Assembly (NCBI GenBank): GCA_044892505.1
Contig: CM097882.1
Coordinates: forward strand, 432,636,001 to 432,700,000
DNA: 64,000 nt
Source: Schmidtea nova
Taxonomy: Eukaryota
Reading direction: 5' to 3'
This document shows positions 2,823-58,927 of this stretch, piece after piece. Each line of letters opens with the position of its first letter. Positions within the stretch are counted from its first letter, which is position 1. The notes under the pieces were generated by a model, which was not told the origin of the DNA, did no database searches, and was given only the letters and a program-made list of their open reading frames with translations. The translations under genes and the position numbers were made by a program.

Positions 2823-3099
2823 TTAAGCTATCACTCTTTAACTTTCGGTCCTACTGATACCTCCTGCCACACATTTCTCCCTTTCCTACGGTTGTCAATG
2901 TCCTTTTGTCCTCGGTGCCAACACAAACTCAAACGCTCTTTTATCTTTGACTTTTTAGGAAAAATAATTGCAACACTAGAAGTAAAAAAACACTAATATT
3001 ATTTACTGGATATTTTATTTATTTCAAAACAGCAATATTTCGTTCAGGAGTTCTAGATCCGACAGTCCATTCAAATGATCCACTTGGGCCGTCAGTTGT

Positions 3100-3438
3100 T
3101 TAGCGAATTCGCATTCTCCTTTTACGTAAATGGCCAAACGGGCTTATTATTGAGTTTGTCGGTGGTTGTGACGTAATCGAATTTGCGAATGAGTTTGATA
3201 CGAGCTGGGTGGACACATGGGATGTCGATGTTACGTCTTCACAATCGGCTCCAACTGAGACGCCGTGGGTCTCCTTGGCCGTCCACCTTCGGGCCGTAAT
3301 TGGTCTGATAAGTGCTCGGAGTTCGGAATCTATAAATGACTTTGTCACTGCGTTAAGACAATTTCGGAGCTCTCGCTGCGCTGTATCTAGCTCTTGCCTT
3401 GTGTCAGCCAACGTCCTTTGGCGGCGGGTATTCTTCAT
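3100..3438 (-). CDS. Coiled-coil accessory ORF family, copy 1 (probably N-terminally partial)
   Basis: ELDTAQRELRNCLNAVTKSFIDSELRALIRPITARRW plus a basic tail; homologous to ORFs at 5.7, 10.4, 47.6 and 59.4 kb. Confidence 0.6.
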   Translation of the reverse strand: MKNTRRQRTLADTRQELDTAQRELRNCLNAVTKSFIDSELRALIRPITARRWTAKETHGVSVGADCEDVTSTSHVSTQLVSNSFANSITSQPPTNSIISPFGHLRKRRMRIR

Positions 3439-5363: not shown

Positions 5364-5505
5364 NNNNNNNNNNNNNNNNNNNNNNNNNNNNNNNNNNNNN
5401 NNNNNNNNNNNNNNNNNNNNNNNNNNNNNNNNNNNNNNNNNNNNNNNNNNNNNNNNNNNNNNNNNNNNNNNNNNNNNNNNNNNNNNNNNNNNNNNNNNNN
5501 NNNNN
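5364..5505. other. Assembly gap (N run)
   Basis: Run of N. Confidence 1.
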
Positions 5506-5708
5506 TTTTTTTATTCTTTTGTATCGTCTCCTTTTACAAAAAATGGAAAAACACTATTGAAAAATGATCTAAATTACTATTAGACAATCGAAATAAATGA
5601 CTTATTTTAAATTTATTTATTTATAACATGGTTATTTAGACTTATGTCTCTGAGAAAGACGAGTTCATTGATCAGCTGGTGGTTGGTAAACGAGGCTAAG
5701 AAATCAAG

Positions 5709-6103
5709 CTAGTCGTCAAACTCCTTCAGAATTCGAGCCTCCAATAGCCGTTTCTTGCGCCGAATTTTCTTTTGACTTGGCTTTGACCTTCGCCTCGCTT
5801 TGACTGGAAAGGATTCACTGCATTGGTACTGCATCATTTTTTTAATCGCCGGTTACAGGATATAGTAAATGAATCATCATGGCCAACTCTATCGATATAA
5901 GTACGGTTCAGTATTTCTTTGCAATTTCTGAGTTCCAGTTTCGTTGCATGTAGCTCGATTTGCAGTATTTCCTTCGCCTGTTGCATTCTCGAAATTTTTT
6001 GATGGAGTCCTTTCACATACGAAGAAGCGAAATAAGTCACTTCTAACTCCATTATGTGGTCTTGTAACTTCTGTCTCACTTGACCATCTAAAGTCTCATG
6101 CAT
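5709..6103 (-). pseudogene. Coiled-coil accessory ORF family, copy 2 (frameshifted before the basic tail)
   Basis: TYFASSYVK...ELHATKLELRNCKEILNRTYID; the tail ARRRSKPSQKKIRRKKRLL lies in another frame. Confidence 0.55.
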
Positions 6104-6469
6104 ATTAGAGCATTTTATCGCGTCTATTCATTTCGATGGTGTATTCATAATCTGGAATTATGTAATAATTTGACAAAAGTTTCTAGTTTTCATTATGCAG
6201 TTTATCTATTCAAAATCTCTCCTTTTCGTTTTCCACTTATTCATGAGATTTCCACAGTTGATACCAAAGTGATATTAAAAGAAAATATCCATGTCAAAAA
6301 AACACATTTAACACACGTTAATAATTTTTATTACACCTCATTTATTACACCAAAGTTATACTATTCCACTTCGTTGTACCACCTGAGTTTACCCGGTCTA
6401 AATCCAGGAGTATCTTCTATTTTATTATTACGAATTTCAGACAATTTCTGTAATTAATATTGGTACTCA

Positions 6470-7318
6470 TTGGCAAGTATTGCGTTCCCAGCCATACAAT
6501 TTTCTGGCATTTAAGCCATTATGTTTCCTCCGATGGGGTTATTCGCAGTTTTTATCCCGATTCTCATGAAGTCGACAAGGACATATCGTAATATTTTTTG
6601 GTATTTGCCACTAAATTGATTGAATCGGTTAGTAAGAGTTCATTACAAAGTGTTAGAAATAGTCCGTTCATCTGTGGAATTAAAAGGAAATATTAACACC
6701 TATCTATCAGATTTCGAGTTCGCCTTTGGTTGCCGCATAATTAAAGCTTGGATTGTCCCATTTTTTATTAGAATCTACTCAAGTTCAGACATTCGAACAC
6801 TAGCATTTTTCCAGTCACATATACCATAAGATTTCAGAGGAGGTAAAATGTGCCACATAGTTTGCAGCAACAACAAAATATTCTGTATTTCGTTGCTGAA
6901 TTTCCTGTGAATAATTTCTACATTGGAAATATGTCCATTGCGCTAAGCTATGGAAAATGTTCGTTTATTCACATCTAATAGAGAAAATTCTCCAATAGCT
7001 TTAGTCCCCTTTCAAAAAACCTAATCGAATGTCTGCATTTAAATGTCCTGAAAAAGTTGCTGTATCTTAAAATTTGTCATGCCAACTCATTCTTCATTTA
7101 TAGATATCTCAGCTTTATCTACCTGCAATATGTCAATATCTGTATATTTATCAAGACTAAGATAACAAGATTCGGCACTGCTCTCGTTGTACTTTTTCGA
7201 ATTTATTGCATTAATATCTTGACTTTCTTCTGAATTTGCCGAATTTTGCTGTTGTTGTACAAGAAATTGGTTGAAAAATCCTAATAATGCCAAAATCGCA
7301 AATTCGTTTTGGCGCCAT
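6470..7318 (-). mobile_element. Decayed hAT (ZMYM1/Tip100-like) transposase 5' fragment
   Basis: Starts MAPKR; TTF-type zinc-finger remnant RIFCCCCKLCG and GICDWKNASVRMSE across frameshifts. Confidence 0.5.
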
Positions 7319-7489
7319 GTCCACTACAATTGAAGTAAAAATTAAAATAAAATATGTGTATAGATCATCTATTGAAGCTGAAATAACATTTTAATTTAAT
7401 TCTAAATATATTCTCGTTCATACATATTCAGTTTCTTTCTATCGCGTGAGTTTTCTCTGAAGATTCTTTAATTTTTACATATAAAATAT

Positions 7490-8063
7490 CACTAGTAGAT
7501 AAAGAAACGAGGCTGGATGCTTGTAATCTACATATGTGTCTTCGGTAAAAAGTGGTATCCTGTTAATATAACAGTCCCTAAAAAAATTTCAAATATTATT
7601 TTGAAAAAGTGAATTGATGTCGATTATTTTGTGCTGCATATAGTACACTATTTCTTACATTGAGTTCTTGAATGTCAGTCATAAAGCATTTCGAAAATTT
7701 TTACAGGAGTTTTATATTCTAGCTTCATCATGTTTAGTTTACGTTGCTCGCATTTATTACCACTATAGGTACAAATAGAAAAACAAGCTCTTTTTCTCTT
7801 CCAGTCTGATAAAAAGCTTTTTCTTGTTTTAATTTCTTAGTTTGAGTCAGTTCATCAAATGGAATACCATGAATTTCAGCTGTTCCTGGAAAATTTATTG
7901 GAACAGTATCTTCTAGAACATTTTCATCCAAATCTTCTTCATTTGTTAACCCATTCACTACTATATGAACATAATCCTTTAGATTTGGATCATCGTTAAA
8001 ATTACATTAATTTTCTACGTAATCTTCAAGATCAATTATAGATTAAAATGTCTTCCTTCCCAT
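7490..8063 (-). mobile_element. piggyBac (PGBD-like) transposase N-terminal fragment, decayed
   Basis: GLTNEEDLDEN...FPGTAEIH, and SVLYAAQNNRHQFTFSK...FLGTVILTGYHFLP, resemble PGBD2/3-type N-terminal motifs. Confidence 0.7.
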
Positions 8064-9099
8064 TATGACACTGAAAAGGAGGTTTATTTTTATAATTTAA
8101 TGTATACTTCAATAATTAATATTTCCTTCAAATATTCACAAAATGAAAAAAATTAATACACACAAGTCAGATTATGCTTTATAAATAATCTATAATAACT
8201 TATTTATAATCTCAAAAATTTATGACATCTGTCAATTTAGTGTTGCTAGCAAAATATAAAGAAGTGTTCCATCTTTTTAGTTAGAAATTGGATTAAATTT
8301 TGTAAATTAATTAATTGATTCGTTAATAACATTAAAATTAATTAAATTGTTATCAATCAAATAACCCGATAATAATATTACTAAGCCACTAACTAAATGA
8401 AATGCAGCCTTACTTTTAAAAATCAATTAAATTTAGTTTTCTACCATAATTTTATCATCAATGAAATGCAACCAATTGATATTGGCTTGATCATCATCGA
8501 AATTAAATTATTTAAATTTATAAATTAATTTATATGATTTCTAAATTTTAATCAAATTTAAATAAACCAACCTCAAATTAATTAATTAAAATTAAAATTT
8601 CATGTATTTACAATCAATTAATTAATTAAAAATTTCTCAAAGAATATATTCGAATTTCTAATTCAATTTGTTGAACTTGGACTCCAAACACTGTTGTTTC
8701 TGTTGGTTTAAGTTTCGTGTAATAAATAATCAAATAAATAAGACAACATATATTAACAATATTATTTTATTAAACTTACAATGATTAAAAATTACAAATA
8801 GTAAATTAGAATTTCCGAAAATACATAGACGCAGTGACCCTCAAGCTAGATATCTATAATTTTTTAAAGTAGCGAAAGTTGGTTCTGCTGGTTTAACTAA
8901 CAAATCCACTCAACGATGATATGTAAAAGAATTGGGGTTACCGTGAGTATTCGCTGTCTATACAATGTCATAAGTAATGGTTATATCGTTTCATAGAATA
9001 CCCTATGATAATTTCAGTGAATTTCATAAGTGATACTAGTATTTCGAAGAAAAATTCACTATCAAAAAATATTTTAAAAAAATTGTATAGCACAAAAAG

Positions 9100-9580
9100 G
9101 TCAATGCTATTTGATTGATCCTGCACACACTTTCTGTAAAGAATATTTAGAGATTGCTGATTGCATTTCGAATTCTAAAGGAAGAGTGTCAAACGATAGT
9201 TTTTCTTTAATATCTCTGACAAACTCTCTCTTGGCTGTAGTCACAAAACAGTGTCCTCTCTCCGTCATAACTCTTGTTAACAAACAGTTAAGTCTCCTGT
9301 TAAATAAATTTCAATAATATTATGAGATAAAGAATACTCATCGTAAATATTCATTGTATGGGTTACAACGTCTCCAGAATCTAAAACAATAATAGTTGTT
9401 CCTACATATGCATAAAAAATTAGCAGAGCTTGAACAGAAGATACACATATAGTTAGAGCATTGAAAAGTTCAAATAGGAGTAGAGTCATCTTTCCTTTCT
9501 CGACCTTTCATTCAAACAAATCATTTCTTTTTCCAACAGCTTTTCGATATAATTCCTAAAGAAATTACATCTCTTTGATT
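9100..9580 (-). pseudogene. act: Highly diverged, intronless actin pseudogene fragment
   Basis: KMTLLLFELFN...VQALLIFYAYVGTTIIVLDSGDVVTHT...IYDEYSL, then after a frameshift LTRVMTERGHCFVTTAKREFVRDIKEKL; collinear with actin. Confidence 0.82.
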
Positions 9581-20145: not shown

Positions 20146-22747
20146 CAACGGTGGGCAAATGCGGCTCTTGGAGCCGCATGCGGCTCTTCGTTGAGTAAAC
20201 TGCGGCTCATTGATAATTGAATTTGAAAATTGAATTCGATTTTTTTTTCCACTGATTTTTTTGGTTTGGAATTTTTCACTGAATTTTTAAAAAAAATTTT
20301 TTTGTTGCAATTGTAATTTCATAAATATCAAAAATTAACGAAACATTGTTTTTCACATTTTACTGCTTTTTAAAATTATTTTGTAGTAGGCGGCGCTTTG
20401 TTATAACAACGAGAGAGAAACAAGCAAAATAAATTTAGTGAATTTTAGTGAATTTTGATTAGTTAGTATTTTTGTGTAAGATTGTGGTCGTTTGTATATT
20501 TTGGTATAGTTTTCTATTCGTGTTTTTTGAAAAATTTGGTAAGAAGATTTTTTTATGAAGCATTTTAGAATTTTAAATTAATTAAAATTAAATTAATTTA
20601 TTTTTATTATTTAGTTTAAATTTCAGTAAAATATTTATTTAAATTTATAATTATAATGACATCAGAAAATATCAGAAAACGAAAATACAAACAAGAAAAT
20701 AGAACTTTTCAAGAAGAATGGACAGAAAAGTTTTTTTTTATTGGCAATAATGGTAAATCGTTGTGTCTTATTTGTAAAGGTACAATTTCCAACTACAAAG
20801 TAACCAATTTACGTCGACACTACGAAGTAAGTCATCCACACTTTTCAATTCAATATCCACTTAATTCAAAATTGCGAACAGAGAAACTTAAGTCATTGCA
20901 ATCAGGGCTTCAAAACAAACAAGGACTATTGTCTGCTTTTAGTCGAGAAGATGACAGTGCCAACGAAGCTAGTTTTTTGATAGCTTGGAATATTGCTCGT
21001 GCTAAACGTCCATATGGAGAAGGTGAATTTATTAAGAGAAACTTGGAAGAAGTGATAAAAGTTTTGGATCCGGATAATACAAAACTACATCAATTACTCT
21101 CACGGATTCCTATGTCACGTCGCACAACTGAGCGTCGAATTGGCCAAATTAGCGAAAATGTTGAAAATAATTTGATGTGTGATTTAAAAAATTGTACAGC
21201 ATTCAGTTTAGCTCTCGACGAGTCTACTGACATTCAGGATGTTCCACAATTAGCCGTTTTTGTCCGCTTTGTATCTTTAGTCGTAGAAGTGAAGGAAGAA
21301 ATGTTAGACCTAGTAGCTCTTATCGAAACAACTCGCGGTGTCGATGTCAAAACTGCGCTTGATGTAGTGATGGAAAGGTTTGAATTGGCTCATGATAAAC
21401 TTGTAAGTGTTGCGACAGACGGAGCGCCTGCAATGATGGGGAAAATCAAGGTCTCATTGGTCTTTTAAACAGAGATCCTTATATTCCACATTTCTTATCT
21501 CTTCACTGCATAATTCATCGCGAGCATCTCATAGCGAAATACTTTAAATACGAAAATGTGTGGAAGATTGTTTTGAAGATTGTGAACTTAATTAGAACAA
21601 ATGCAAAAACACATCGTCAATTTAACAACTTTTTAGAAGAATTAAGATTAAATGACGAAACAGATAAATTGCCCAATGATGTCTCTTTATGGTGTATTGT
21701 TAGACGGCTGTCAACTTACAATGTTTTAAACCGTTTTGTAGAACTCCTAAATTCTATCATAATATTTACCAAAGAAAAAGGAATAGCATACCCAGAATTA
21801 GAAAATGAAACTTGGCTTTCTGACTTAATGTTCCTTACAGACATTATGGAACATTTGCAAACACTAAATTTGGCTTTACAAGGAAAAGAAAAGATAATTA
21901 TTGATTTATCACAAACGTTATTTAGTTTTGAAGCTAAACTTCAGCTTTTTGTGAACGATCTTAGGTCGAAAATATTTAATCATTTTCCACAAGTAAAAGC
22001 AAATATAATTGATATCACAAAAGAAAAAATTAACGAATACAATGAAAAATTGGAAGAATTGCAAGCGGATTTCAAATGTAGGTTTGAAGATTTGAAAAGT
22101 TTTAAATCTACATTTGCATTTTTTGTGAACCCATTTATTTGTGATATTATTGAAGATGGATTTCCAATTTCTGAAGTAATACTTGTTGAAAAAGCGGCTG
22201 GGGAATTGGAGTTATTAGAGATGAAAGAGGATCAGGCTTTGCAAATGCAGCATAAATCTACGTCTATAATTGAATTTTGGAAACTCGTACCAGAGTCAAA
22301 ATATCCACACTTAAAACAAGCTGCTTGCCGTCTAATTTCAAAATTTGGTACAACATATTGTTGTGAATCTTTGTACTCCACAATGAAGTTGGTGAAGTCG
22401 AAATATCGTTCACAGTTGACCAATCAGCATCTTACAGAATTGCTGCGAACAGCTTTAACAAAGTATACACCAAATTTCAAAGATTTGACCAAGAGTCTTT
22501 CTTTAATTCAAGGATTTTTATTACTTTTTATTAATGGATTTTCATTACTTTTTATTAATGGATTTTTATTATATTATATTTTTATTACTTAAATTTTGAA
22601 ATAATTATTTTCTTTTTGTTTTAATAGCGTTTAAGTCTTTTTTAATCAAATTAATGAAATAAAAAAATGTGTACTTTACTATGGTGGCTCTTTAAAAATA
22701 AATTATCGAAAATTGTCTCTCATTGAACTCATGCGTGCCCACCCTTG
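20146..22747 (+). mobile_element. hAT (Buster/SPIN, GTF2IRD2-like) transposon, complete ends
   Basis: TIR CAA(C/G)GGTGGGCA; 8-bp TSD CCATATAC at 20138-45 and 22748-55. Confidence 0.95.
20656..22592 (+). pseudogene. hAT transposase with one frameshift near 21445
   Basis: CLIC/RRHY zinc finger, LALDESTD, ATDGAPAM, LHCIIHRE, FGTTYCCESLYS. Confidence 0.9.
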
Positions 22748-25465: not shown

Positions 25466-27790
25466 CAGAAGCGTATCTAGGACAGGGCAAACAGGGCATA
25501 AGCCCCGGGCGCCACTATTATAGGGGGACCGATTTGGCTTTTGATCAATTTTTAATTTAATTCTTAAAACGGTCTTTTGATTAATTTACGTTCAATTACA
25601 TCATCTTGGTTTGTGAAAAAAATAGCTAACGGTGTTTTTGTCAGTCGATCTTGGTTGATCTATTCACCATATAAAGAAGCCCTTTTTAGTTTCTGCTGTT
25701 TGATTTTTTGCAACGATAATTTTAAAACTGCATTTACTTCGCCAGCTGGCTTTAAAAATTGTAAGCATTCTGAGAGAATAAGTGATCACGGAAATAGCAT
25801 TACTCATCGTCAGATTTTCACTGTATAAAAAGAAACAGAACGAAGATTGATGCAAGTTGGTGGAATCGATAGAGAAATAGAATCGCAAATAATGTTAGAA
25901 AAGGATCGATTTTAAAAAGGTTTCTTTCATGCATAAAACTTTTGGTATTTCAAAATTTTAGGCCTCATAAAATTAATTGCACAGTATGATTTTTTGGCAA
26001 GTCATTTGGATTATTCACGCGAACATCCAGGATCAACATCGTATTTATCACCGGGTATACAAAATGAATTTATTCACATCATGACATCAACAGTTCGAAA
26101 TAGCATGCTTGAAAATATTAAAAAGAATAAATACACTGGCTTGATTTTTGATTCTACTCCTGATTTGCAACATCGAGAACAATTTTCTCAAGTAATTCGC
26201 CATGTTGAAATCGATTTCGAAAAGAATACAGTTGAAATTAAAGAATCATTTTTCAGAAATGATTTCTGATCCTTACAGAATCATGGAAAAGGATGCTGAA
26301 ACATTAGAAAGCACTATACTAAAATTAATAAAATATGATGGATTGCAGCTTTCGGACTGCCGATTACAGTGCTATGACAATGCGGCTGTTATGGCAGGTC
26401 ATGTTTCTAGATTACAACAAAGAATTTTGAAACTAAACCATCTAGCTATTTTTGTAAATTGTGAAAACCACAATTTAAATCTTGCTGGTCTGCATTCAGT
26501 TCAAATTGATCCAGTAATGTTAAGCTTTTTCGGTGTAATTGAACAAATTTATTTATTTTTTTCGAGTTCAACTAATCTTTGGCAAAAAATGGTTGATGTT
26601 ATGCCTTTAATTGTGAAGCGTGAATCAACCACACGATGGAGTGCTCAAGCGGAAGCTGTGAAAGCGATTTTCGTTGCAATTGATAAATTTGTCGAAATTT
26701 TTGAAGAACTATCTGAGAATAGTAACCAAACATTCGATACAAGAAGTGAAGCAAACAATTTAATTCAAAACGTATTGAATTTCAATTTTCTCTTTTTAAT
26801 TCATTTCTGGCATTGTATTCTTGAAAATATAGATCGTGTACAGAAACGTTTGCAAGATCCAAAAAAATAATTTTAAAGATGCATCAGATGATTTACAAGG
26901 ATTAAGCACACATATTCAGGAATTTCATGAAGATTTATGCTTACAATCACTCGAAGTTGGTAAGAAAAAGTGTTCTGAATGGTAGTGGAAATAAAAAAAG
27001 AGTGCGACATGTGAAAATGGGATATGGAGAAAAAACATATGATTCCGGATTAACAGCTGAACAAGAATTGGAACACGTCTTAAAATGTTCAGTTGATCGA
27101 TTTGGTCAAGAAGTAGAACCACGATTCAACCGTCTCAATTCATTAAATGTAAAATGTTTTCTTGGCATTGAAAATTTATTGAATTGAACTGATTCGATTA
27201 AGCTAAAAGTAAAGTGCTCAAATTTAGCAGCATTTTACAATTCAGATATCTATGCAATAAAATTACTGACTGTAAAATGTTTTTAAATGGGCGAAAAGAA
27301 GAAATACTGAAATTCTCAATCGATATTCTAAAATTTGTGATATCCTATGGTGAAGATGTTTTTCCATTGCAAATTCTTTTGACAATTGGTGTATCTTTTT
27401 CAACATTCGAGCGTTTTTTAAGCAAATTAAAACTAATTTTATTATATCTCCGTGCATCGATGGGTGAAGTCCGTTTGAATGATTTAGCATTATTAAGCAG
27501 AGAAAAATACAGTTGAAAAAATTAATTTTGATGATGTTATCGATAAATTCGCAAGTGTCAGGGCACGTAAAATTTGTTTATAATATAATAAAGTTTCATT
27601 TTCTTTGCAAAAATTTAAATTTCCTTGTTTTTCTATATTATTGTTAAATTGTAAAAAGTATTTTCACTTTATTTTTGCATAAAAAGTTTAATAACAATGT
27701 TTTTTGTGAACAGTAAAGGGTCGAAAATAAGAAGGTGTGCGAAAATTTATATTTTACCAGGACGCCGGAATTTTTAGAATGTATTTAATA
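25466..27790 (+). mobile_element. hAT (ZMYM1/Tip100-like) transposon, heavily frameshifted transposase at 25577-27580
   Basis: TTF finger SWLIYS...FCCLIF, LIFDSTPD, CYDNAAVMAG, VNCENHNLNL, STTRWSA, ERFLSKLKLI; left end CAGAAGCGTATCTAGG, right end decayed. Confidence 0.85.
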
Positions 27791-30626: not shown

Positions 30627-32237
30627 TCAATGTCTGTTGTTTTGTTTATTATTTGCTATTTCATTGGCATTGCTACTGACTGATTTCCGGTTAGAAGTAC
30701 AAGTCGGAAGTTTGCTCTTAGTGCCGAAGTTGTTGCTTGGTTGAGTTTTGTTAATTTCCTGAATACTCTTTTGGCGCTTTATTGATGCAGTTTCGCTATG
30801 TTTTGTTGTTGTGATAGTTTTATTTGGTTTCTGAATTCCATTTACAACAAAACTGTTTCTAGTGTCGTTCCGAAAAGATTTAGCGCGTGAAACCTCTCCA
30901 ATGGTGGGTTTCATTGGGTTTTGCATATTTTTATCGAAATTCTGTTTTTCTAAAACAGTGTGCCTTCGAGGTAAATTAGTTGCATTATTTGACAAAGTTT
31001 GGACACTGGATGGATTTGGCTTACAAGTAGTGGAACCTGCTGCAATTTTCAGAATAGAATCGGACATAATTGGCCTGGTTGAGTATTTTGACCGACTTTC
31101 AACTACATTATGTTTACTTGTAGAAATTTCATTAGAAATTTCATTTTGAAATGATTTCACAAGGGTTGGAAGTTTTATTTCTCTTGGCTTTAAACTCCCC
31201 TTGTGATTAAAATTCGTCTTTTCAAGAATAGTTTGTCTTCGCGGTAAATTATTCGCAGATCTAGTAGCAATATTTGAAGAGCATGTCTTAGGCGATAGAA
31301 AATTGTCTGCCAATTGTATTTTATTTCTCAATGCAATTGTGGAAGATCTTACTAAGGTTTTTCTTGAATTTTTTAAATCTTTATCAGGAATTTTTATTAA
31401 ATTTTTATCTTCAATATTCTCAATAACCTTTTCTACTTTTTGAAAGTATTGGACAGGTTGAATTGTTTCATTTGAAAGATCTTGTTTCTTAAGATCAGAC
31501 ACAACTGTCACTACTTTTTGACTTTGTAAAGAATCTTTTTTCTGTTTTTCTAATACTTCACTGGCTGATTTTAAATATTTTTCAATGTTGAGAAAATTAT
31601 GACTATCATAAAGATTTTGTTTGGCATTACCGCAGGAAAATTTAATTTTACCAAATGAAAACACTTCCTCCGCATTAAATTCTTCTTCTTTGGACTGTTG
31701 ACTAACTGAATACAACCAATTGCTGGAGGTGAAATCCTGGAGTAAGAATTCATCTGTTTCTTCTTTGTTTTGATTATTTATTTCAACTTTGAAATCTTTT
31801 TTCGATTCCTCTTTTATGCAATTCGACATATCAATTGAATGGAAATTTGGCATTGATTTCTGCAATTCCATTTCAACTTTTTCTCCGTTTTTGGAATTTA
31901 TTTCTACATTTTTATAGACATTAGAATATTGAAGTACAGTGCTGGATTCATTAGCTAAACCAATAATAGAATTATGTAATTCACTTACATTTACAGTAAC
32001 CTTGTCACCTGTGGATAGTTTAAACTCAGAGTAATCTTTGATATCGTTTTGATATCTATCTGGACCTTCACTTAGGAGATTTGAATTGTTTCCAATTAAA
32101 TCGTCAATACCTACAATTAAGTTATCGGACCCCTCTGATAGCCAATTATCATAATTAATGTCACTTTCAAGAAAATTGTCAATATTCATACAATTTCTAA
32201 CATCAGTAATACCAAAACTTTTAATTTCCAGATCCAT
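30627..32237 (-). CDS. Uncharacterised 536-aa Ser/Lys/Asn-rich, probably disordered host protein (single exon or first exon)
   Basis: The only long uninterrupted host-like ORF; ATG start; internal repeat NNLPRRQTILEK/TNLPRRHTVLEK. Confidence 0.72.
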   Translation of the reverse strand: MDLEIKSFGITDVRNCMNIDNFLESDINYDNWLSEGSDNLIVGIDDLIGNNSNLLSEGPDRYQNDIKDYSEFKLSTGDKVTVNVSELHNSIIGLANESSTVLQYSNVYKNVEINSKNGEKVEMELQKSMPNFHSIDMSNCIKEESKKDFKVEINNQNKEETDEFLLQDFTSSNWLYSVSQQSKEEEFNAEEVFSFGKIKFSCGNAKQNLYDSHNFLNIEKYLKSASEVLEKQKKDSLQSQKVVTVVSDLKKQDLSNETIQPVQYFQKVEKVIENIEDKNLIKIPDKDLKNSRKTLVRSSTIALRNKIQLADNFLSPKTCSSNIATRSANNLPRRQTILEKTNFNHKGSLKPREIKLPTLVKSFQNEISNEISTSKHNVVESRSKYSTRPIMSDSILKIAAGSTTCKPNPSSVQTLSNNATNLPRRHTVLEKQNFDKNMQNPMKPTIGEVSRAKSFRNDTRNSFVVNGIQKPNKTITTTKHSETASIKRQKSIQEINKTQPSNNFGTKSKLPTCTSNRKSVSSNANEIANNKQNNRH

Positions 32238-32829
32238 TATAAATTTATGTAAAAATATATGAACAAATTTAACTTTCTAAACTAAATTTTCCTTATTATT
32301 TGGTAATTCTATTTCATCGGAATTATTAAAATTTTTTGAAAATAATTTTAAAGTTTTGTATGAAAACTTTTTAATATTAATTTTAAGTATTAATCATTTT
32401 ATAATTATATCATTGCTAACTTTCTTTTACTGAAATAATATTAATTCACATTATAACAAGACATCAGCATGAAATTTAAATTAAAATTTTTTTTAAAAAT
32501 AATATATATCAAGTTTAAATTTTAAAATATAATTATCAAAATTAAAATTTTTTTATCATTTATTTCAAGACTTTTGATAAGTATTTTTATTAATAAATAT
32601 TTTTGTATTAATCCCCAAATTTTTTTTAAATCAAATTTTGTGAACTTCAGCAACATCTCTTATTTTCACCATTGGTCTTTTTGTTTTTGTTCAGAAATTT
32701 TCATTATTTTTAAGACTAAATTAATATTTTATTTGGAAATTTTAGCACATTTTTTTCTTTTTTCAACTTATACGCACTTTTTCAAAGTTCTGACAATGCT
32801 TTAAGAGTCCTCGTGTGTTATTTTCACCA

Positions 32830-41814: not shown

Positions 41815-44398
41815 CACTCAATTCTGTTTTTATGCGGTTTTTTATACAAACAAATTTTTTATACGATTTATAAATTATGCGACTTGTTCCTTCTTTTTTT
41901 GTGCTCGTCATGATTCTTTTTTCACCTACTTCTTCACTCATTGCGTAGTAAAAAAAATAATTTTACGCACTGTGCTCATTATTATTGTGTCTGGTGTGGT
42001 TTTAAGTCGATATCAGTGAAATTTGTTGTAAACTGTTTCATGGTGTAATTTTAATGTGAGTTGTTTTTTTTATTAAATAAATGTAAAAAATTTTTATAAA
42101 TTTTTATAAATTTAAATTAAATAAAATTTTTTTTTATTTTGAAAATTTTTAGAATTTTTTCTAATTTAAATGAAATTTTTTTCTAGCTAAATTGAATTTA
42201 TCCTTTAGAAAAAAGAAACACAAACGAACGGCAATTTCTTTGGAAATTAAAATTGCAATCTTAAATCGTTTGGCGAAAGGAGAGAGATCTACGGATGTTG
42301 GTAAGCATGTTGGCTTCGGCGAATCTACTATATGAGCTAATAAAAAGAATGAAGTGTTAATAAGACAGTCTGTTATTTCGGGTACAAAATTAAGTTCCAA
42401 ATTGTAATCATATTCAAGAAATGTTTTAGTAAAAAAAAAACTAAAAAAGCGTTGATAATTTTGATTGACGATCTAACAACAAAAAAATTCCTTTAGATGG
42501 TCCGTTAATTAAAAATAAGGCTCTTACGAGCAATTGAAGCAAATAGAACCACCTTCTACCGCTCATTCCGGTACAGAATTTTCAGCAAGCACAAGATAGT
42601 TTACCCGTTTTCTAAAAAGAAATGCTTTCACAACGTGAAGATTACCGGCAAAATCGCATCAGCAGACGAGGTGACTGCTAGGCATTATTCTGAACAGTTG
42701 GCAAAAATTATTGAGGATGGTGGTAATTTTTCCGATTAGATTCTAAAAAGAAATGCTTTCACAACGTGAAGATTACCGGCAAAATCGCATCAGCAGACGA
42801 GGTGACTGCTAGGCATTATTCTGAACAGTTGGCAAAAATTATTGAGGATGGTGGTAATTTTTCCGATTAGATTTTCAACGCAGATGAGACGGGGTTATTC
42901 TGGAACATACATTGCGAAAGCTGAGAAAAAAGCAAGTGATTTTAAAGCAGCCAAAGACAGAGTAACCTTTCTACTTTGTAGCAATGCATCAGGAAATCGG
43001 ATGCTCAAACCCTTGCTTAATAATCGATCGCTACGACCGCGGGTCCTAAATATTAAAGATTTAAAAAAATTACCAGTGCATTGAATGGCGAACAAAAAGG
43101 CTTGAGTGATATATGCTTTTTCACCGAGTGGTTTAACAATTGTTTTAACAAAAGTTTATTTGAAGCAAAAGGGACTTGATTTTAAAGTTCTGTTGATTGC
43201 CGATTATACAACGAGCCAAATTCAGCCATTAGATCAAGGTATAATTGCTACTTTTAAAAAATATTATGTGAAACAAACCTTCCAATTCATTTTGAATCAA
43301 GTTGATAATGAGCCAATTACACTTACAGGCGTTTGGAAAAAGTTTTCGATTCTAGACTGTATTAAGCATGCTACTTCTGCTATTAGTGAAATAAAACCAC
43401 GAACTTTAAATGCGTGTTGGAAAACACTATGGCCTCAATACATCACAAACAGAAACACAATTAGTCAAGGATCGACGGTTTCTGCTGAAATTATTGCTTT
43501 AGCACATGAAATTGGTGGCGAAGATTTTGATACATTTAACGAGAATGATGTCAATAAATTGCTTGTGGACAAGGCCTTAAGTGACGATGATGTTATCGAA
43601 TTATTGGATCCGGTCCTAGATCCAGAAAATAATAGTAATTTAGAAGACAGTGAACCTGCCCCGCTCACTGCAAAAATAATTCGAGAAGGTCTTCAACTTT
43701 GCAACTCATTAGAAAATCATTTTATTAATAATGACCCAAATTCTGAACGGGCATTAAAATTCCAGCGTGATCTGAAGAATTGCATTTCTGGGTATCAGGA
43801 ACTTCTAAAACAATTTCAGAAATCGTCGCAGTTTAATAGCAGATTTTGTTGTCAAAGAAGCAAAACCACCAGCCGTTGAAATTAGCACAGGATATAATGA
43901 AGGAGAATTAATTTTGTCACCCGAATTGTTGACTATCTATAGCAGCGATAATATGATTTCGTACCAGTTAAAAAACGGTCGCGGGCATTGTCAAGAAGTG
44001 AAGATAATGACTAATTGTAATTTTCATTTAGTATCTAAGAAAAGTGAAATAAAAAATTTTTTTTTGGACTCGTGATCTCAATTTGTTTTAAATCTATAAT
44101 CCTCTTTTCTTCAAACAACTTTAATTACCCACCATAAGCCTCTCCAAGAAGGGTAACTTTTTGTGCGATTTTTTGGTTATTTAGTTTTCTGCGGTTTTTG
44201 AAAATTATTGAACTTATCACTATTTATTCAATGTAGGTAGTGTCTTTTTATGTGATTTTTTGGTTATTTATTTAGTTTTATGCGGTTTTCGAAAATTAAT
44301 GAACTTATCCCTATTTATTCAATGTATAGTGTCTTTTTATGCGATTTTTTTGCTTTTTTCTGAGGAACGTATCTATCGCATAAAAACAGAACTGAGTG
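41815..44398 (+). mobile_element. pogo/Tigger-like (CENP-B DDE_1) transposon, complete ends, decayed transposase
   Basis: 22-bp TIR CACTCA(A/G)TTCTGTTTTTATGCG, TA TSD on both sides; FNADETG, TFLLCSNASG, QPLDQGII motifs. Confidence 0.93.
42610..42871 (+). repeat. 131-bp perfect tandem duplication inside the Tigger transposase
   Basis: 42610-42740 equals 42741-42871. Confidence 0.92.
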
Positions 44399-51290: not shown

Positions 51291-52323
51291 AAAGCTTAAA
51301 TTCAATTAACTTATCTATATTTATATTGAAAAAATAAATAAATAGTTTAGTGAAAATTCGTCTCTTATTATTCATTCAGACAATCCACTAGTTTGAAAAA
51401 CCCCTTTTAATAGATCACTAAAGATTAGTAGGTATTATTGTTATCATGGAGTATTAAAAAGTCAACAATTTCAGTATTACAAAATAATAAAAAAAATCAA
51501 AAATCAGTAAAATTATTATCATGACCTTGTAGAAACCATTATAAATATTATATTATATCAATGAAATAAAATAAAAAAACAAAATTAAGGCAAAGCACTC
51601 TTGACCTTCGAGGGTTGAATTCCTTGGACAACGACTAAGACTGCTGCTGTAACTTGTTATTGTAATCGAGATTATATCAAAAAAAATATTATTACTATCA
51701 TTATTATTACTAATATGGAAAACACTTATCATTCTACAAAGATACTGATAAACCCTTGATGTCTTTTAATTTGCTAAGAATTCATAGAAAAACGACATTA
51801 AGGAATAATTATTCAATTATTTGCTTTACTATTAGTTGCAAAGTTCAGAACCTCTAACATCAAATGAACTAAACCTTGCGAGATTTAATCTTTAGTACGA
51901 GATACATCTAATTTACTCAACTGCCACTACTAACAAACTGCATACTCTTTTGGTTTTAAGCACTTTGGGTACGTTCAGGACAAATTTCATCTGTCACCAA
52001 GATATCATGGAACATATGAGTTAATAGGAAACTTGAAAATAATAAGGATGAAAACATGTTGGATGTTTAGGAATCCTTGTAATTTAATAATATATTTAAA
52101 CCTATTATAATTATTAATAAATTAATTATTATTGATATTATTATTAAGTATTGTAGTGCCTCCGTTATTTATATGTTATTATATTATTTAATTAAATATC
52201 AATATTTATATATTAAAATCAATCATTAAATGATTTATAAAAAAAATGCGATTTGTTTAAATCAGAAAAAAATGGCACTTATCTCTTAATTTAAAAAACG
52301 ACATGCAAAAAGGAATTTAAAAA

Positions 52324-53580
52324 ATGGAAGCTGCACCAGTTAAAACCCAACGCAAACGACGAAGTTACCAATTGAATGTTGTTGTGAAAAAGAACGCAAA
52401 TCGTACAAAGGAATTCAGCGAGCACAAGAGGCAATTGATACAATCAATCACCCCAGCGATTGCTACTAGTACAAAGACCGATATTTCTACCATTGAAATA
52501 CCAGAGCGCATTAAAGACAGCTATTTCATGAAGGAAAAGAAGACTAAATCAACTGTGAAATCTGATGATATATTTGCAGCTAAGAATTTGTCTTATTAAA
52601 TATATTTTCAGCTGCTAAATTTGTCTTTTTAATTATATTTGCAGCTGCTAAAATTGGTGTCAGAAATCCGCCTGATAACAGTCAAACAGGACTAGTCACG
52701 AACTGGTCAAGGAACGAATACGATGCACAATGGATCAAATTTGACGGATATGTCATATCAAATAATGAACGGTTATTTATCGAATCAGTTTTGAAGAAAC
52801 AACACGAAAACACTTACACTTGTGCCATTGTTCACAAAACTCAACCGAACCAGGTCTTCAGAAAAGATGTCATTCTAAGGATTGCGGTGCCAATCGTTCA
52901 AATACAGATCCTAGCTTCCGAGAAACTGACAATCAACGGCTTGATTCATAGGAAATGTGTCGGATTCAAATTGGCTCAATCGACTGAAAGATTTTCTTAT
53001 TATTGGATAGATTCCCAAGGAAGAACAATCTCGAAGACTGACACAATTCAAGTCCCAATAAATGATGAATCGGTATTCGGGCAATACGAATGTCATTACA
53101 GAGCTCATAAATCAGATGCATCATATCCCATCACAATCACCCCTTATCCTCAAAAGTTCCGTTTGAATGAGAAGTTCTCAATGCGATGTCAAGTGGCACC
53201 AGAACTCAAACAAGTTCAATATTCTTGGTATCATGACAATCAACTGTTGGAAAGCAATCAACAAACGATAACCTTTGACAGTTTCACCCGTTCGAAGCTT
53301 GGAGTGTACAAATGTAAAATAGTCGAACTGGATCAAAGAAATCAGAAAGTAGAATTAGAAGCCAAATCTTATCAACGTCTATCATAATTTGTCCCAATTA
53401 AAGTCGAACTGATCGAAGGAGCCGGATCACAAGTCGCTGTCATCATGTCGAAAAAAAAGAACTGCACTGTGAAATTTCTGCTGACAGTGAATATTCTGGA
53501 TCAGATGTTCAATGGAAGTTCGAAAACCAAGAATTATCTACTCCAGACTCCCTCAACCTTCAACAACCACACGGCGAGTC
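52324..53580 (+). pseudogene. Intronless multi-immunoglobulin-domain gene (three domains plus a truncated fourth), frameshifted
   Basis: Repeated C...W...YxC pattern (TYTC, GQYEC, GVYKC); frame break at a triple 32-33-bp repeat (52570-52650) and frameshifts after 53387. Confidence 0.72.
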
Positions 53581-53742
53581 ATATTTTAAATTTATACTAT
53601 TAATTAATTATTTATTATATACATTCCTTTTAAATTGCATAATATTATATATATAATACCTATTATAATTATAAAATTTTATGCTGCACAATTTTTCTAT
53701 TCTCCCATTAAAAGCTATACTAGTAACCCCCCTCAATCTACC

Positions 53743-54858
53743 ATGTACAACAACGAGTCTTTCGCCACTTCCCCAACATATGTCCTAACGCGTTTCAACC
53801 ACAAAACACGCCAAATCCCCATTTTCACGGATTTGCGCACTGATATCGCCACCTCTTATCTGATTAATAGGAATGAATTTTACATGACGTGCAATGGTTT
53901 CCCAATTTCATCACTCACCGACATTCCACCTAATGCTATCATAGAAATTCATTGCCGCGTTTTAGGAGGCGTCCGACCCACTACAGAACCGCCTTATTCA
54001 TCCACTTCACGCCCAATTTTGTTCTTTTTGGATCCCGACGGCACACCCTCGTCGTGGTTCCGCATTTTCGAATCGCGCACGTCTTCCTTTCCGAAATCAC
54101 GCGCCGATTACCTACTCGACAGCCTGCCATCTGAATTGATAGCCGAACTTGCCCCTAAAATAGCCAACGCGCTTTACGCAGACAACCCGTATGATGATCT
54201 CAAATCCCTGATAGTGTCAAAATACACCTCATCACAAACCCAAGCTCTCACAAAGCTTTTGGCACCACAAAATTACTCAGGACAACAGCCAAGCCTATTC
54301 CTAGAACAGATTGCCCGCTCCAACGACATCGCCATTCCAGATCTGTCCAAAAACACTCAACTCTTAAAACATCAATTCCTCTCCGCACTTCCATATAATC
54401 TACAAACCTCCCTCGCATTGGTAGACTCTGAAGACCCGTACCATCTTGCTAAAATAGCCGATCGCATTTATGCACTTCAACCCCATAAACCGCGCGCTGA
54501 TAATTACACACCACCACCGCCACCCTCCATTGTCAACGCAACACATTCACCCGAAAACCACTACACTTGCAACGTCACAAAGTATTCCAACTATACACCT
54601 CCATTACAGCAAGCACAACGCCCCAATCATCCACAGAACGTACAACCCAGTAGCAGCGCACCACTAATTTGTTTTTTCCACAGCCGATTCAAAAAACATG
54701 CACAGAAATGCTGCATTGGTTGCGCTTCCGAATTCCACAATCCTCTTGACCTAGTCATTCCAATCTGTATCTACCACCACCTATTCAAGAACGAAGCAAA
54801 ATCGTGCATAGACGGATGTACTTGGCACACGAGCAGTTACCACCATGCAAAAAACTAA
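53743..54858 (+). CDS. Ubiquitin-like domain fused to Ty3/Gypsy-type Gag (intact, 371 aa from ATG 53743)
   Basis: Residues 1-76 end IEIHCRVLGG; then gag-like PSSWFRIFESR...YDDLKSLI...QQPSLFL...QFLSALP...LAKIADRI; two CxxHxxFxxxAxxC knuckles. Confidence 0.82.
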   Translation: MYNNESFATSPTYVLTRFNHKTRQIPIFTDLRTDIATSYLINRNEFYMTCNGFPISSLTDIPPNAIIEIHCRVLGGVRPTTEPPYSSTSRPILFFLDPDGTPSSWFRIFESRTSSFPKSRADYLLDSLPSELIAELAPKIANALYADNPYDDLKSLIVSKYTSSQTQALTKLLAPQNYSGQQPSLFLEQIARSNDIAIPDLSKNTQLLKHQFLSALPYNLQTSLALVDSEDPYHLAKIADRIYALQPHKPRADNYTPPPPPSIVNATHSPENHYTCNVTKYSNYTPPLQQAQRPNHPQNVQPSSSAPLICFFHSRFKKHAQKCCIGCASEFHNPLDLVIPICIYHHLFKNEAKSCIDGCTWHTSSYHHAKN

Positions 54859-54903
54859 CTGTGTCGTCGGATATTCCTGGACGCTCCGATGACTTCCTGC
54901 CAG
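54849..54903 (+). promoter_or_regulatory. -1 programmed ribosomal frameshift signal
   Basis: A AAA AAC in the correct phase directly before the gag stop; 7-nt spacer; stem GTCGTCGGA(54863-71)/TCCGATGAC(54885-93); possible loop CTGG:CCAG pseudoknot. Confidence 0.7.
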
Positions 54904-55301
54904 TGAACACCTCTTCTCTCAGCAAACCACGTCCAACGTACACAATATCAACTCCACCAGCAAGCACCATCTCAGAAACAACCGCTACCCTCTCTACAGT
55001 ATTATTTCCTCACACGACACAACCACCAATAGCAATACAAGCACCAACACCTGAACAAGAACCAATCAGCACACCTTGCACAACACTAGCAACAACGACA
55101 ACAACATTACCCGACACACCACACAGAGCACCACCTGCATCACTACCAGCAGCAACATTCACAATTCCATCAGATACACCACTAACAATACCAGAAGCAC
55201 CACTCACCTTTTCCGACGACGACACCCGCACAGAAATACACACATATTCTAGCACAGCCGCCACAAAAAAAAAATTTCGTTTTCCTTTTGCGTTCTGTTA
55301 G
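54855..55301 (+). CDS. Pro/Thr-rich -1 frame extension of the UBL-Gag protein
   Basis: Open -1 frame (listed ORF 54804-55301); no intact protease, RT or integrase motif; the last ~40 nt run into a Tigger fragment. Confidence 0.5.
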   Translation, partial: LTVSSDIPGRSDDFLPVNTSSLSKPRPTYTISTPPASTISETTATLSTVLFPHTTQPPIAIQAPTPEQEPISTPCTTLATTTTTLPDTPHRAPPASLPAATFTIPSDTPLTIPEAPLTFSDDDTRTEIHTYSSTAATKKKFRFPFAFC

Positions 55302-56130
55302 AAGTTGTTGATAAGTGGATAAAGCATCTATAACACCCCGTCTTGCTTTTAAACTCTTGTCAAAATTTGGATCATTTTCAACAAATTGGTCCGTAATTTC
55401 AGTTATAGTGGTCAAACTCATTTTTACAAACGTCATCGAAAGTTCTTTTTGATTTTCTTCGAAATCACTACTATCAATATTTTTGTTTTCTTGCGCAGTT
55501 AATTTCTTGAACTATTTTTCCGACTTCTTCCACATTTACCTCATCAATACAGGTTTGTTTTGCTAATACCACTATTTCATTCATATCGACAGTGTCCAAT
55601 GTTTATGCTCTTACTTAAATCCGCGCCAAATGTTCTTCCATACTCCTTTGAAAGATCTTTCTGTTATCTCATTCCAAGAAAGGTTTATATTTGCTACAGC
55701 ATTTATGATATTGTAGTTTTTCCAAAATTCTCTTATTGATTGCTTCTCTTCTCCGTCTGTTTTTTCAAACATCTGCTTAAATGTTCGCCTCAAATAATAA
55801 ACTTTAAAATTGGATATAACGCCTGGGCCCGTTGGTTGGATTAAGACAGTTGTGTTAGGTGGCAAGAAACCCACTTTGACTGGAATGCATGTTGTTAAGT
55901 CTGATAAATTTCTTGGGTGGCTTAAAGCATTATCAATTAATAGTAGTGCTCTTTGTTCAAGTTTTTTAATTTCGCAATAACGTTTAACAGACGGGCAGAA
56001 ATATTTATTGAACCAATTCCGGAAAATTTTCATAGTTATCCATGATTTTTTATTAGACAGGAAAGAAAACATTCTAGGGATGCCTCCATCCACGACCAAA
56101 CATAAAATGCTTACGTGACACACAAGCACC
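55262..56130 (-). mobile_element. pogo/Tigger transposase 3' fragment
   Basis: NKKSWIT...FRNWF, LLLIDNALSHP, FLPPNTTVLIQP, acidic tail. Confidence 0.85.
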
Positions 56131-56197
56131 CTCGATTATTTCCCTGGATAATCGAGTTGGAAATGTGCAAGGTGTTTGAAAAATGATGAATAGGTGA

Positions 56198-58927
56198 TAG
56201 GACATGGTTCGATTAATCGATTAATCGGTTAATCGATAAATTTATGTATGGTTTGATTAATCGAACAATTTCTAGTTAATTCGATTAATCGTTTTTTTTG
56301 TAGCTTGTATTTATTTGTAACAAGAAAATTAAAAATTCCGTATATGGAAGGCAATTGTTTTCCTGCACCTGCACCCAAAAGTATTAGGAGTCATTTCTAT
56401 TTTCCGCGAATTTTATTTAAAGTAGGAAATAGAAATTTATCACAGTAGGCTAGGCATAGTAAAAATAAAAGTTCTTTAGTTATTTTGTCATTACATTGCT
56501 ATTAGCATTTAGTTTTCTTTTAATAAATATTTAAAAGTGGTTGATATAAAAGTGAATTATTTTTCGGTATATTAATACTTAAATTTTTAAAAAATATAAA
56601 ATTATCTAAATAATTGTGCTCGAGAAAAACCTCTAAAAACAACACCAATTTTATCAATAATCTCTTATTTTTCAAAACAGGTATACCTTTTACAAAATAT
56701 AATATATAAAATATTTATATAATAAAAATTAAATTTAGATTAATCTGTGGCTGAGAAGGAAAAAGAAAGCGATTGGATTCAATCCAAAGAAAAGAGAAGT
56801 GAAATTTGGACTCATCTATTAATTAACAGCAAAGACAATAATATTTTAAAGTGCAAACACTGACACTACATTTCAGTCGCATAAAACAACGACGTCATAC
56901 AGGTATCATATGCAACACAAACATAATTTGTGTAAAGTGGTTGCTTCAACTTCAGCAGCAAGTCAAAATAATGACGCATTTAAAGTTATTTCGTTTTTTA
57001 CCAAAAAATCTGCATCATCCCCAGGATACGTACTTGCTAAATTAACTGCATTAGATCGCATACCGTTTGCTACTCTGGTAAATAGCGAAGAAATCAAAAA
57101 TGGATGAAAAGCCCAAGGTTTAAGTATTCCTGTAATAGAAAAGGGTATCAAGGCTATGGTGGTTGATTACGCAGATACGATTCAACAAGCTCTGAAAAAC
57201 AAACTTAAATTGAAAATCGAAGCTTGGGAACGATTTTCTTTGTCTTTTGATGAGTGGACTTCAAAACGCAATCGTCGATATATGTGTCTAAATATTCACA
57301 CCAAAGATAAAGATGTTTTTGGGCTTGGCATGATAAGAATAAAAGAAACCATGCCAGCAGCCAAAGCAGTTGAAATTGTAGAAAAAAAATTAAGTGAATA
57401 TGACATTATTTTGAAAAAGCACATAGTGGCATTTGTGACAGATGGCGCCTCTGTAATGAAAAAGATGGGTCGTTTGATGTGTATTTACCATCAAGTTTGC
57501 CACAGCCACGGAATACATTTGGCAGTTGTAGACGTCCTCTACAAAAAAAATTCAACTACGTTTGAAGAAATAGACGAGGAAATCCAATTGGAAAATGAAA
57601 ACGCTGGAGATCAATCTGATTACGATTCAAATGAAAGTGAAACAGAAAGTGAACTTCAATTTTGGATGGAAGAAAATTCTTCAGAACACATAAACTGCGC
57701 TCTAGCTGATTATTTTTCAACAGTTATTCAAAAAGTAAGAAAAATAGCTCGAATGTTTCGTAAATCTCCTGTTAAAAATGATGTGCTGCAAAAAGCCTGT
57801 AAAAAATGAAATTGGTAAGGAATTAAATTTGATAATTGATACCTCCACAAGATGGAATTCGCTGCTGGCTATGCTTAAACGGTTCTTGGAAATGAAAGAC
57901 GTTATAAAAACAGTTTTACATGATTTGTCTGTTGTTCAAATTTTTCCTTCCAATTATGAACTAAATGTTATTTCGGATATTGTTGAATCATTGGAAGTAA
58001 TTGAAGTAAGCTCCTTGGCCCTGGCCAGGAAAGATTGCAACTTAATACAAGCAACAAAAATCTTTGAATTCTTATTGACAAAATTAAAAGAGCAATCCCA
58101 CTCAAGTGTGCTGGCACAAAAGTTTTGCACGTCAATGACTACCAGAATTAATGAGAGAAGGAACCCAAATCTTGAAAGATTACTGGTGTATTTGGATGAC
58201 CCAATAAAATATTTAGAAAGTGTATCGGATGAAAACTTTGTTTTTAAAAAACCAACCAAAAATGAGCTCGCTAATACCGCTAAAGATTTTGCTAATAGGT
58301 TACTTATACCGCTTACAGAAAATCCATACGAAGCTGATTCTGATTACGAAGATGAAAACGATGTTATGGAAATTGTATCTGAAAAAAGAGCAAAATATTC
58401 AAAAGCAGATGAGTTACAGGAATTCTTAACTAAAAAACTTGCTAAAACCAATTCAACAGCTGCATTCAACTATAGTTTACAAGATATAAAAAGGGAAATG
58501 ATGGTTTACGAACACAGTAAAATAAAAACAGATTTACTATCAAAAATTTATAATGGATTGTTGAGCGTGCGGCCATCATCAGTGGAGGCGGAAAGAAGCT
58601 TTAGTGCTGCTGGTTTGTTCGTTACAAAGCTCCGGACATCCTTGAACGACAATACGTTGTATAAACTCTGCTTCCTACGTGCACATTTATTAAATGAAAA
58701 AAATACAAACTAAATATTTTATAATGTATTATTTTATTTTTTACCTATATATGTACTGAATTTTATTTGAAGTGAAATAAACTTTTATTTTTGTTAAAAT
58801 GCAGAAGTTATTTACTTAAAATACATATAAAAGAAAAATTAATAAATTAATCGATTAATCGACTCAAAAACTGAACAATTAATCGTTAATCATTTTTCTC
58901 TAAAATCGATTAATCAACCATGCCCTA
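56198..58927 (+). mobile_element. hAT (Ac/hobo, BED-type) transposon, complete ends, transposase with a stop and frameshifts
   Basis: TIR TAGG(A/G)CATGGTT; TSD ATAGGTGA/GTAGGTGA; FDEWTS, VTDGASVM, CHSHGIHL, TRWNS, PSSVEAERSFS. Confidence 0.93.

Follow-up and report, generated by a model that had tools for sequence, protein, structure and literature searches.

A ubiquitin-like domain ending in Gly-Gly ahead of Gag in a Gypsy family of Schmidtea nova, and its possible use as a cleavable linker

The locus and its Gypsy family

The window, i.e. the whole 64,000-nt stretch of Schmidtea nova DNA analysed here, contained a stop-free ORF of 371 aa at positions 53743-54858, in which the initial annotation had correctly placed a Gly-Gly at residues 75-76 (53965-53970) by translation. 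The Gypsy-type Gag proposed there was recovered as a DUF7041 match at residues 102-173 (E 8e-7; Pfam, single sequence). Its C-terminal Cys/His knuckles proved to be two CX2HX9CX3C motifs, at residues 310 and 342, and the C-richness of the region was borne out. The ORF belongs to a broken copy of a young Gypsy LTR family and represents its Gag region; the copy has the following features:

52152..52652 (+), 5' LTR (TG...AA) of about 500 bp, 89-96% match to 3' LTRs from full copies; its ends, like the 5-bp target duplications, are taken from sister copies
52272..52274 (+), first ATG of the LTR, at about LTR position +120 and likely the ORF1 start of the family; same position in the LTRs of families A and B
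52324 (+), second ATG of the LTR
52309..52596 (+), captured piece of spliced host ribosomal protein L6 (RPL6) mRNA, within the LTR; PF01159, E 1e-7 in L004
52655..52665 (+), primer-binding site (PBS), 11-nt complement of a host tRNA 3' end; in sister copies the open frame passes through it
52700..53560 (+), captured immunoglobulin-domain cassette, in the position that is exchangeable in the window's subfamily; Ig_2, E 2e-9; other cassettes occupy the slot in sister copies
53590..53742 (+), AT-rich stretch encoding a hydrophobic segment ahead of the ubiquitin-like domain; frame change near 53646 in the window copy
53743..53970 (+), ubiquitin-like domain (UBL) by profile and predicted structure, fold at about residues 9-75, ending in RVLGG
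53965..53970 (+), Gly-Gly, predicted cleavage site; invariant in 40/40 aligned rows
54004..54489 (+), Gag capsid domain, residues 88-249; DUF7041, fold match to MLV capsid
54670..54819 (+), two CHCC (CX2HX9CX3C) nucleocapsid motifs; the pair was found in 32/40 aligned rows
54849..54858 (+), slippery site A AAA AAC with the stop of Gag, where a -1 shift into the pol frame is predicted; homologues likewise end in KN
54856..55267 (+), beginning of the pol frame, rich in Pro/Thr; the element ends abruptly at 55267, where the match to full copies stops

The 3' part of the element was absent from the window and from the following 9.9 kb. In this copy the Ig cassette is interrupted by a stop codon (53385-53387) and shifts frame near 53450. 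Because the copy had lost its upstream frame at four places 5' of 53743, the initial annotation had read an N-terminus of 76 aa. Decayed DNA transposases were seen elsewhere in the window, at 55611-56135 (-), 43106-43879 (+), 20620-22592 (+), 57108-58713 (+) and 26196-26870 (+); Pfam assigned two of these remnants to DDE_1 and two to hAT-type transposases, and one further piece is presumably hAT-like. A low-complexity open frame of 549 codons at 30627-32276 (-), with no Pfam match above the cut-off, may be a large host exon.

A 32-mer from the end of the UBL displayed 490 exact matches in the genome (control, 0). The alternative of a domesticated gag gene, raised in the initial annotation, was ruled out by these copies, at least 490 in number, and by the LTR and PBS upstream. 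LTR pairs of full copies were mostly 97-100% alike over 330 nt, and the family is therefore young. Target duplications of 5 bp matched in 10 of the 14 copies examined, the other four being unresolved by the script. Full copies were either about 4.0 kb long, with most of pol missing, or 6.3-6.9 kb long with pol. In L031 and L032, the -1 frame following A AAA AAC was a 1212-aa ORF in the order PR-RT-RH-IN, the protease match of L031 being weak (E 0.19). The copies of about 4.0 kb (L002-L023) form a non-autonomous branch, which kept leader and Gag and lost most of pol. No env was seen in Gypsy copies of 4.0-6.9 kb. The window copy retains the 5' LTR alone, but with the paired LTRs of its full copies, the PBS, polypurine tract, capsid Gag and pol order the element is a Ty3/Gypsy LTR retrotransposon; the family is CsRn1-like by comparison of published features, and is not placed as a member of CsRn1.

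The PBS was complementary over 11 nt (14 nt in family B) to the 3' end of a tRNA gene in L158, whose anticodon was read by inspection as CAA (Leu), the ARAGORN call being judged wrong. Locus L158 (G000:C2:300540000-300543000) was a tandem array with a 0.9-kb period and hundreds of repeats, each unit containing three tRNA genes: Gln, Gly and the intron-bearing one read as Leu. Family B, recovered with P0005 (examples L041, L075 and L081), displayed a UBL ending in RARGG, and gag and pol shared a single frame in some of its copies.

The ubiquitin-like domain and its Gly-Gly

The sequence of the UBL by itself matched no ubiquitin in Pfam or among PDB sequences, and residues 1-76 gave nothing relevant; weak single-sequence matches to a leucine-rich repeat protein and to teneurin were dismissed as chance. 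The beta-grasp fold expected by the initial annotation was recovered by AlphaFold with a 40-row alignment, over residues 9-75, with strands (12-18, 21-27, 46-50 and 66-71) and helix (31-39) in ubiquitin order and pLDDT of 92-97 over residues 11-70. The model of the full window ORF displayed this domain followed by a helical domain with two lobes and a pair of Cys/His modules. The top Foldseek rows for residues 9-75 were ISG15 and ubiquitin (probability 1.0, E 2e-3 at best), and structure comparison gave Z 8.0 with an rmsd of 2.2 A over 66 residues. Since the Foldseek E-values were weak, sequence profiles matter for the identity of the domain. When the window row, family C and three Pfam-ubiquitin-positive rows were left out, the profile, which still contained relatives of the window protein, recovered the window UBL at E 5e-16 and the three Pfam-positive rows at E 1e-14 or better. 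With this reduced profile, the window UBL minus its last six residues scored 37 bits, and none of 499 shuffles exceeded 9. The family UBL profile matched PDB ubiquitin at E 1.5e-11. It is by profile only that the UBL can be called homologous to ubiquitin. Atlas look-ups returned only leads under 0.9, namely DUF7041 clusters and, for residues 9-80, mixed beta-grasp families.

The ORF does reach Gly-Gly at residue 76, as had been pointed out in favour of a domain of ubiquitin length; this length is coincidental, the fold starting near residue 9-12. The further suggestion of a free, conjugatable UBL was not supported. The domain was only 8/76 identical to host ubiquitin, and the I44 patch, K48 and K63 were absent in the alignment. 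Of the key residues considered (L8/I44/V70, R42, R72, R74 and the chain lysines), only R72 and the Gly-Gly were kept, in an alignment that is uncertain at 8/76 identity, and a role as conjugatable modifier seems unlikely. The UBL is under selective constraint: dN/dS was 0.14-0.34 between Gypsy subfamilies (Gag, 0.16-0.21), and 0.31 between families A and C (Gag, 0.08), where dS is near saturation.

A profile search over 1.8 billion proteins yielded 46 top matches. [LIVA]xGG preceded the capsid core in all 34 having at least 40 upstream residues; the other 12 were too short. Among the next 105 matches, the motif was found in five; 25 displayed a long leader without it, 73 were short and two had no core. 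The conservation of Gly-Gly that the initial annotation had called for is thus far beyond chance. The Gly-Gly lay a median of 20 aa ahead of the capsid core (n=39), the Met of ordinary Gags a median of 28 aa ahead (n=82). The following residue was S, M, A, T, V or G in 33 of 40 rows (background 35%) and never Pro, a significance overstated by the relatedness of the rows. P0001 had no Met downstream of Gly-Gly, and since such a Gag lacks a Met of its own, the cut or the uncut fusion is its sole option. A retrotransposon capsid was also found where the initial annotation had looked for one: in fold searches residues 88-249 matched capsids of MLV, PEG10, Arc and Copia, with Z 10.2 and an rmsd of 7.5 A over 172 residues for the MLV capsid and Z 10.0 and 2.5 A over 81 for its CA-CTD.

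A Gag tree (quick method, 98 of 137 rows) gathered 40 of 42 UBL rows in one group (SH-aLRT 90) and required seven UBL changes, against 31.8 when shuffled; P0094 stood among ordinary Gags. P0018 and P0090, with ubiquitin at 54/76 and 57/76 identity, were placed among relatives with diverged UBLs, which suggests a fresh recapture of ubiquitin. Leaders of homologues carried pieces of histone H2A, tubulin, 5'-nucleotidase, CNOT1, Rrp44 and SCC3; Hsp90-like and Arp8-like are tentative labels. For these homologues, mostly known as protein sequence, read-through of the PBS is suggested by peptide words in 14 of 25 leaders. In P0113, a single protein sequence with a related Gag, what we take to be a 2A-like motif (GDVESNPGP, recognised by eye) replaces the UBL upstream.

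A frame from the LTR through captured host sequences into Gag

Copies L004, L006, L007, L009, L013, L018 and L019 displayed an open frame of 850-920 codons that begins within the LTR and closes at the end of Gag, and in L004, L006 and L013 a frame of 870 aa started at the first LTR ATG. The L004-type order was RPL6 piece, hydrophobic stretch, PBS, Ig domains, hydrophobic stretch, UBL and Gag. The UBL, which had been taken for an N-terminal domain, appears to be internal to ORF1 of the family, whose frame begins some 500 codons further upstream, within the 5' LTR. The frame upstream of ATG 53743 was open in most sister copies.

Phase was followed in the first 30 of the 490 32-mer matches by position, 25 of which had the PBS within the 1.5-kb flank. 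The leader was in phase with Gag in 24 of these 25 and open across the PBS in 22, with an in-frame ATG before the PBS in 20 of the 22. Seven leader length classes were represented, with different cassettes (another Ig piece, Q/N-rich, S/T-rich). Three additional in-phase lengths were found among the 30 closest copies, so that ten length classes altogether keep phase. Among the closest copies, 9/27 were open across the PBS and 10/27 were out of phase, Gag being intact in many. Their frameshifts were scattered, at most two of 22 alignable copies sharing one, and the indel shared by 14 copies was 57 nt; these frameshifts look like decay after insertion. A candidate out-of-phase subfamily of six copies was rejected, its members displaying separate one-base losses. 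In family B, 27 of 27 copies, chosen by Gag score, were open and crossed the PBS in a different phase. Metagenome contig L071 held LTR, ATG, PBS, UBL and Gag in a single frame; L073 had a stop codon between PBS and UBL. All these samples, chosen by exact UBL match or Gag score, are biased toward young copies.

Gag might also start at the UBL ATG itself (53743), by leaky scanning, splicing or an internal promoter, the open leader then merely avoiding upstream ORFs or nonsense decay. Met1 was kept in 24 of 30 family A copies in an ACC-ATG context (A at -3), which makes a second start in family A possible, and many copies displayed an intact UBL-Gag behind a broken leader. As the general explanation we nevertheless consider such a start quite improbable: family B had no Met from the PBS to the UBL start, the family C frame had none at the UBL start either, phase with the LTR ATG was held across the ten length classes, and no shared splice acceptor was seen immediately before the UBL among the copies examined. 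Codon-level constraint on the RPL6 piece also argues against it. This piece was 86-97% identical at the DNA level to the host gene (L084), lacked both of its GT-AG introns (56 and 44 nt) and displayed a 141-nt deletion that keeps the frame; it derives from spliced host mRNA. Exons of 16 and 34 nt were present in the host gene. The dN/dS of the piece was about 0.3, with third-position excess in 3/3 comparisons (p 0.001-0.012). It is not neutral, and some cargo may be doing something. The LTR of family B carried a nuclear-receptor piece, whose start resembles that of a probable host gene (L095). Both zinc fingers of the nuclear-receptor DNA-binding domain were still encoded by older family B LTR variants (L096, L103).

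A search of the genome for ubiquitin uncovered a BEL/Pao family (L195-L202, e.g. L201, oriented 2676-9548; G000:C1:285281500-285291400), recognised by DUF1759 Gag, Peptidase_A17 and DUF5641 in a single ORF. This ORF ran from inside the LTR through variable host pieces, PBS and an Hsp70 piece into ubiquitin, Gly-Gly and Gag-Pol. The ubiquitin was 72/76 identical to that of the host, ended in LRLRGG and was preceded by a degenerate ubiquitin tail. LTRs were 99.6-100% alike, indicating a young family. Pfam identified HECT and an RNA polymerase subunit among the variable pieces; others are presumably calmodulin-like and glutathione-reductase-like. Pooled pairwise dN/dS over 16 copies, from non-independent pairs, reached 1.02 in the Hsp70 piece (91 pairs), as against 0.15 in ubiquitin and 0.14 in Gag (120 pairs in both cases); the Hsp70 piece is drifting neutrally. 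Most of the 150 scored ubiquitin matches of the genome scored like this family. In the search for such fusions elsewhere, matches were swamped by polyubiquitins and no BEL domain was found among the best 120 of 655. L181, L189, L190-L192 and L194 were more multi-copy ubiquitin fusions, at 67-70/76 to host ubiquitin, with other downstream sequences. The BEL/Pao and Gypsy families are unrelated and, within the same genome, display a convergent layout of LTR, cargo, ubiquitin, Gly-Gly and Gag.

The leader product might itself be useful, as a membrane-anchored or decoy protein, the cut at Gly-Gly then separating two useful products. In family A the Ig cassette lies between two hydrophobic segments, two different Ig pieces had entered the same slot, and the low dN/dS of the RPL6 piece points the same way. 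A segment with hydropathy of at least 1.6 was present in 13 of 25 homologue leaders, and that of L004 reached 2.5 over 19 aa, a value attained by 3/300 shuffles. Such segments beat shuffles in only 3 of the 25, and a universal membrane anchor was rejected on this account. Close subfamilies swap their cargo for unrelated Q/N- or S/T-rich pieces, the cargo of family B displayed third-position excess in 0/8 comparisons and had lost a zinc finger, and the BEL Hsp70 piece is neutral. A useful leader product is on balance unlikely to be the explanation.

The LTR frame reopens in the 3' LTR and may extend past it (L077, 7518-8267; L198, 6769-8463). Insertions and solo LTRs could seed fusion genes through this frame.

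A predicted linker, and comparison with known systems

Ubiquitin ending in LRLRGG is cut from linear fusions by host enzymes. The portion of PMC8354635 drawn on here describes cleavage after Gly-Gly for linear ubiquitin and FUBI fusions, and cutting by USP36 at the Gly-Gly of FUBI, a diverged UBL 36% identical to ubiquitin (PMC8354635). The identity of the window UBL to host ubiquitin is far below that of FUBI, and a suitable host protease is assumed. The UBL might never be cut and might help Gag to fold, act as a matrix-like domain or mark Gag for the proteasome, or trimming might fall to the aspartic protease that the element encodes. This fits the extreme divergence from ubiquitin, and cleavage is a prediction. 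We consider it very improbable: Gly-Gly is invariant while the remaining domain drifts, the residue after it resembles a selected new N-terminus, leaders of 100-900 unrelated residues would remain attached to the capsid, and the BEL family uses a near-true ubiquitin whose LRLRGG is host-cut in linear fusions, as far as described in PMC8354635.

Our preferred reading, to which we assign a probability of roughly three in four, is that the UBL acts as a linker cut by host deubiquitinases and so makes Gag independent of a captured leader. Ribosomes would start at the first good AUG, within the LTR, and would translate through captured host pieces and PBS into UBL, Gly-Gly and Gag. Template switching in the course of reverse transcription would bring pieces of host mRNA into LTR and leader, and since Gag lacks its own start codon, captures would survive only when in frame. 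Cleavage after Gly-Gly would release a standard Gag and give Gag and frameshifted Gag-Pol an identical N-terminus regardless of what lies upstream; the leader would therefore become a free slot, and the captured leader in turn gives the linker its purpose. Layout, folds, conservation of phase, spliced origin of the RPL6 piece and selection on the UBL are the observed parts of this mechanism.

A wider reading is tentative and in our view rather doubtful. It holds that in two LTR retrotransposon superfamilies LTR and leader came independently to contain a translated slot for exchangeable pieces of host mRNA, which a ubiquitin linker renders harmless. The slot would be adaptive: with element RNA disguised as abundant host messages, any small-RNA silencing of the element would also strike essential host genes, and each insertion and solo LTR would spread promoter-bearing gene fragments. 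Protection from silencing by mRNA capture is testable in sister subfamilies that differ in cassette alone.

If true, the preferred reading describes a new route of Gag expression, combining a start in the LTR, read-through of the PBS and a capsid N-terminus set by the host ubiquitin system. It would explain how replication-competent LTR elements keep capturing host genes without loss of gag, which is impossible for defective transducing elements. The BEL/Pao convergence and the 2A-type case suggest a general rule, that a captured leader requires a separator. The dozens of natural UBLs, from 72/76 to 8/76 identical to ubiquitin and all ending in Gly-Gly, would form a series for probing the substrate needs of deubiquitinases.

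Among the openly readable papers searched, no UBL-Gag fusion was found, and UBL-linker expression of Gag in LTR retrotransposons was apparently undescribed before. A partial parallel exists in cytopathic pestivirus (BVDV), where captured ubiquitin or UBL upstream of NS3 gives host proteases a site that defines the N-terminus of the next protein. Pestivirus insertions are sporadic events in an RNA virus, whereas the Gypsy UBL is a fixed and old clade feature coupled to a cargo slot. The word 'ubiquitin' was absent from PMC11410931 and PMC13524379 in a word search, and had no occurrence in the CsRn1 paper (PMC2582038).

According to the parts of the latter paper used here, the CsRn1 clade of Ty3/Gypsy (CsRn1, PwRn1, AgCR) displays a CHCC Gag, TGT...AAA LTR ends and gag-pol either fused or joined by -1 frameshift (PMC2582038). 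The window family shares the CX2HX9CX3C motif, these LTR ends and, by prediction, the -1 frameshift, but its CHCC is doubled, it has a Leu-type PBS and a 5-bp duplication instead of a Trp PBS and 4 bp, and its ORF1, which likely begins within the LTR, includes captured cargo and a UBL (PMC2582038). Like the giant Gypsy elements Burro/GYPSM1, it encodes a polyprotein with host-like domains, those of Burro including a Ubi2/SUMO-like domain (PMC6431247). Burro exceeds 30 kb and has an N-terminal Gag with the UBL downstream and an env in frame, and the sections of its report drawn on here describe no processing role for Gly-Gly. The present family, in contrast, is 4-7 kb long, with UBL and Gly-Gly directly ahead of Gag, variable cargo upstream and no env seen (PMC6431247).

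LTR elements are known, from the excerpted part of PMC5131818, to take up mRNA by template switching, and LTR-mediated retrocopies and maize Bs1 likewise contain pieces of spliced host mRNA, several genes being joined. In those, the cargo replaces internal ORFs and the element is defective; here it lies in LTR and leader, in frame with Gag, and gag-pol is intact (PMC5131818). Ginger, Mutator and Helitron elements encode a Ulp1 or OTU protease themselves rather than a substrate, in the portion of PMC2836005 used. The predicted cut resembles that of ubiquitin and FUBI ribosomal-protein fusions, made after Gly-Gly by a host deubiquitinase even with a diverged UBL; those are host genes with an N-terminal UBL, whereas the present UBL is internal, far more diverged and part of a mobile element (PMC8354635, in part). 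In non-LTR elements, 2A sequences act as separators close to the N-terminal end of an ORF and were described as a domain-adding linker (PMC3708506). They act by ribosome skipping and in ORF2, as opposed to the proteolysis proposed here for Gag, and, from the part of PMC3708506 considered, these 2A linkers are the closest in logic to the UBL linker.
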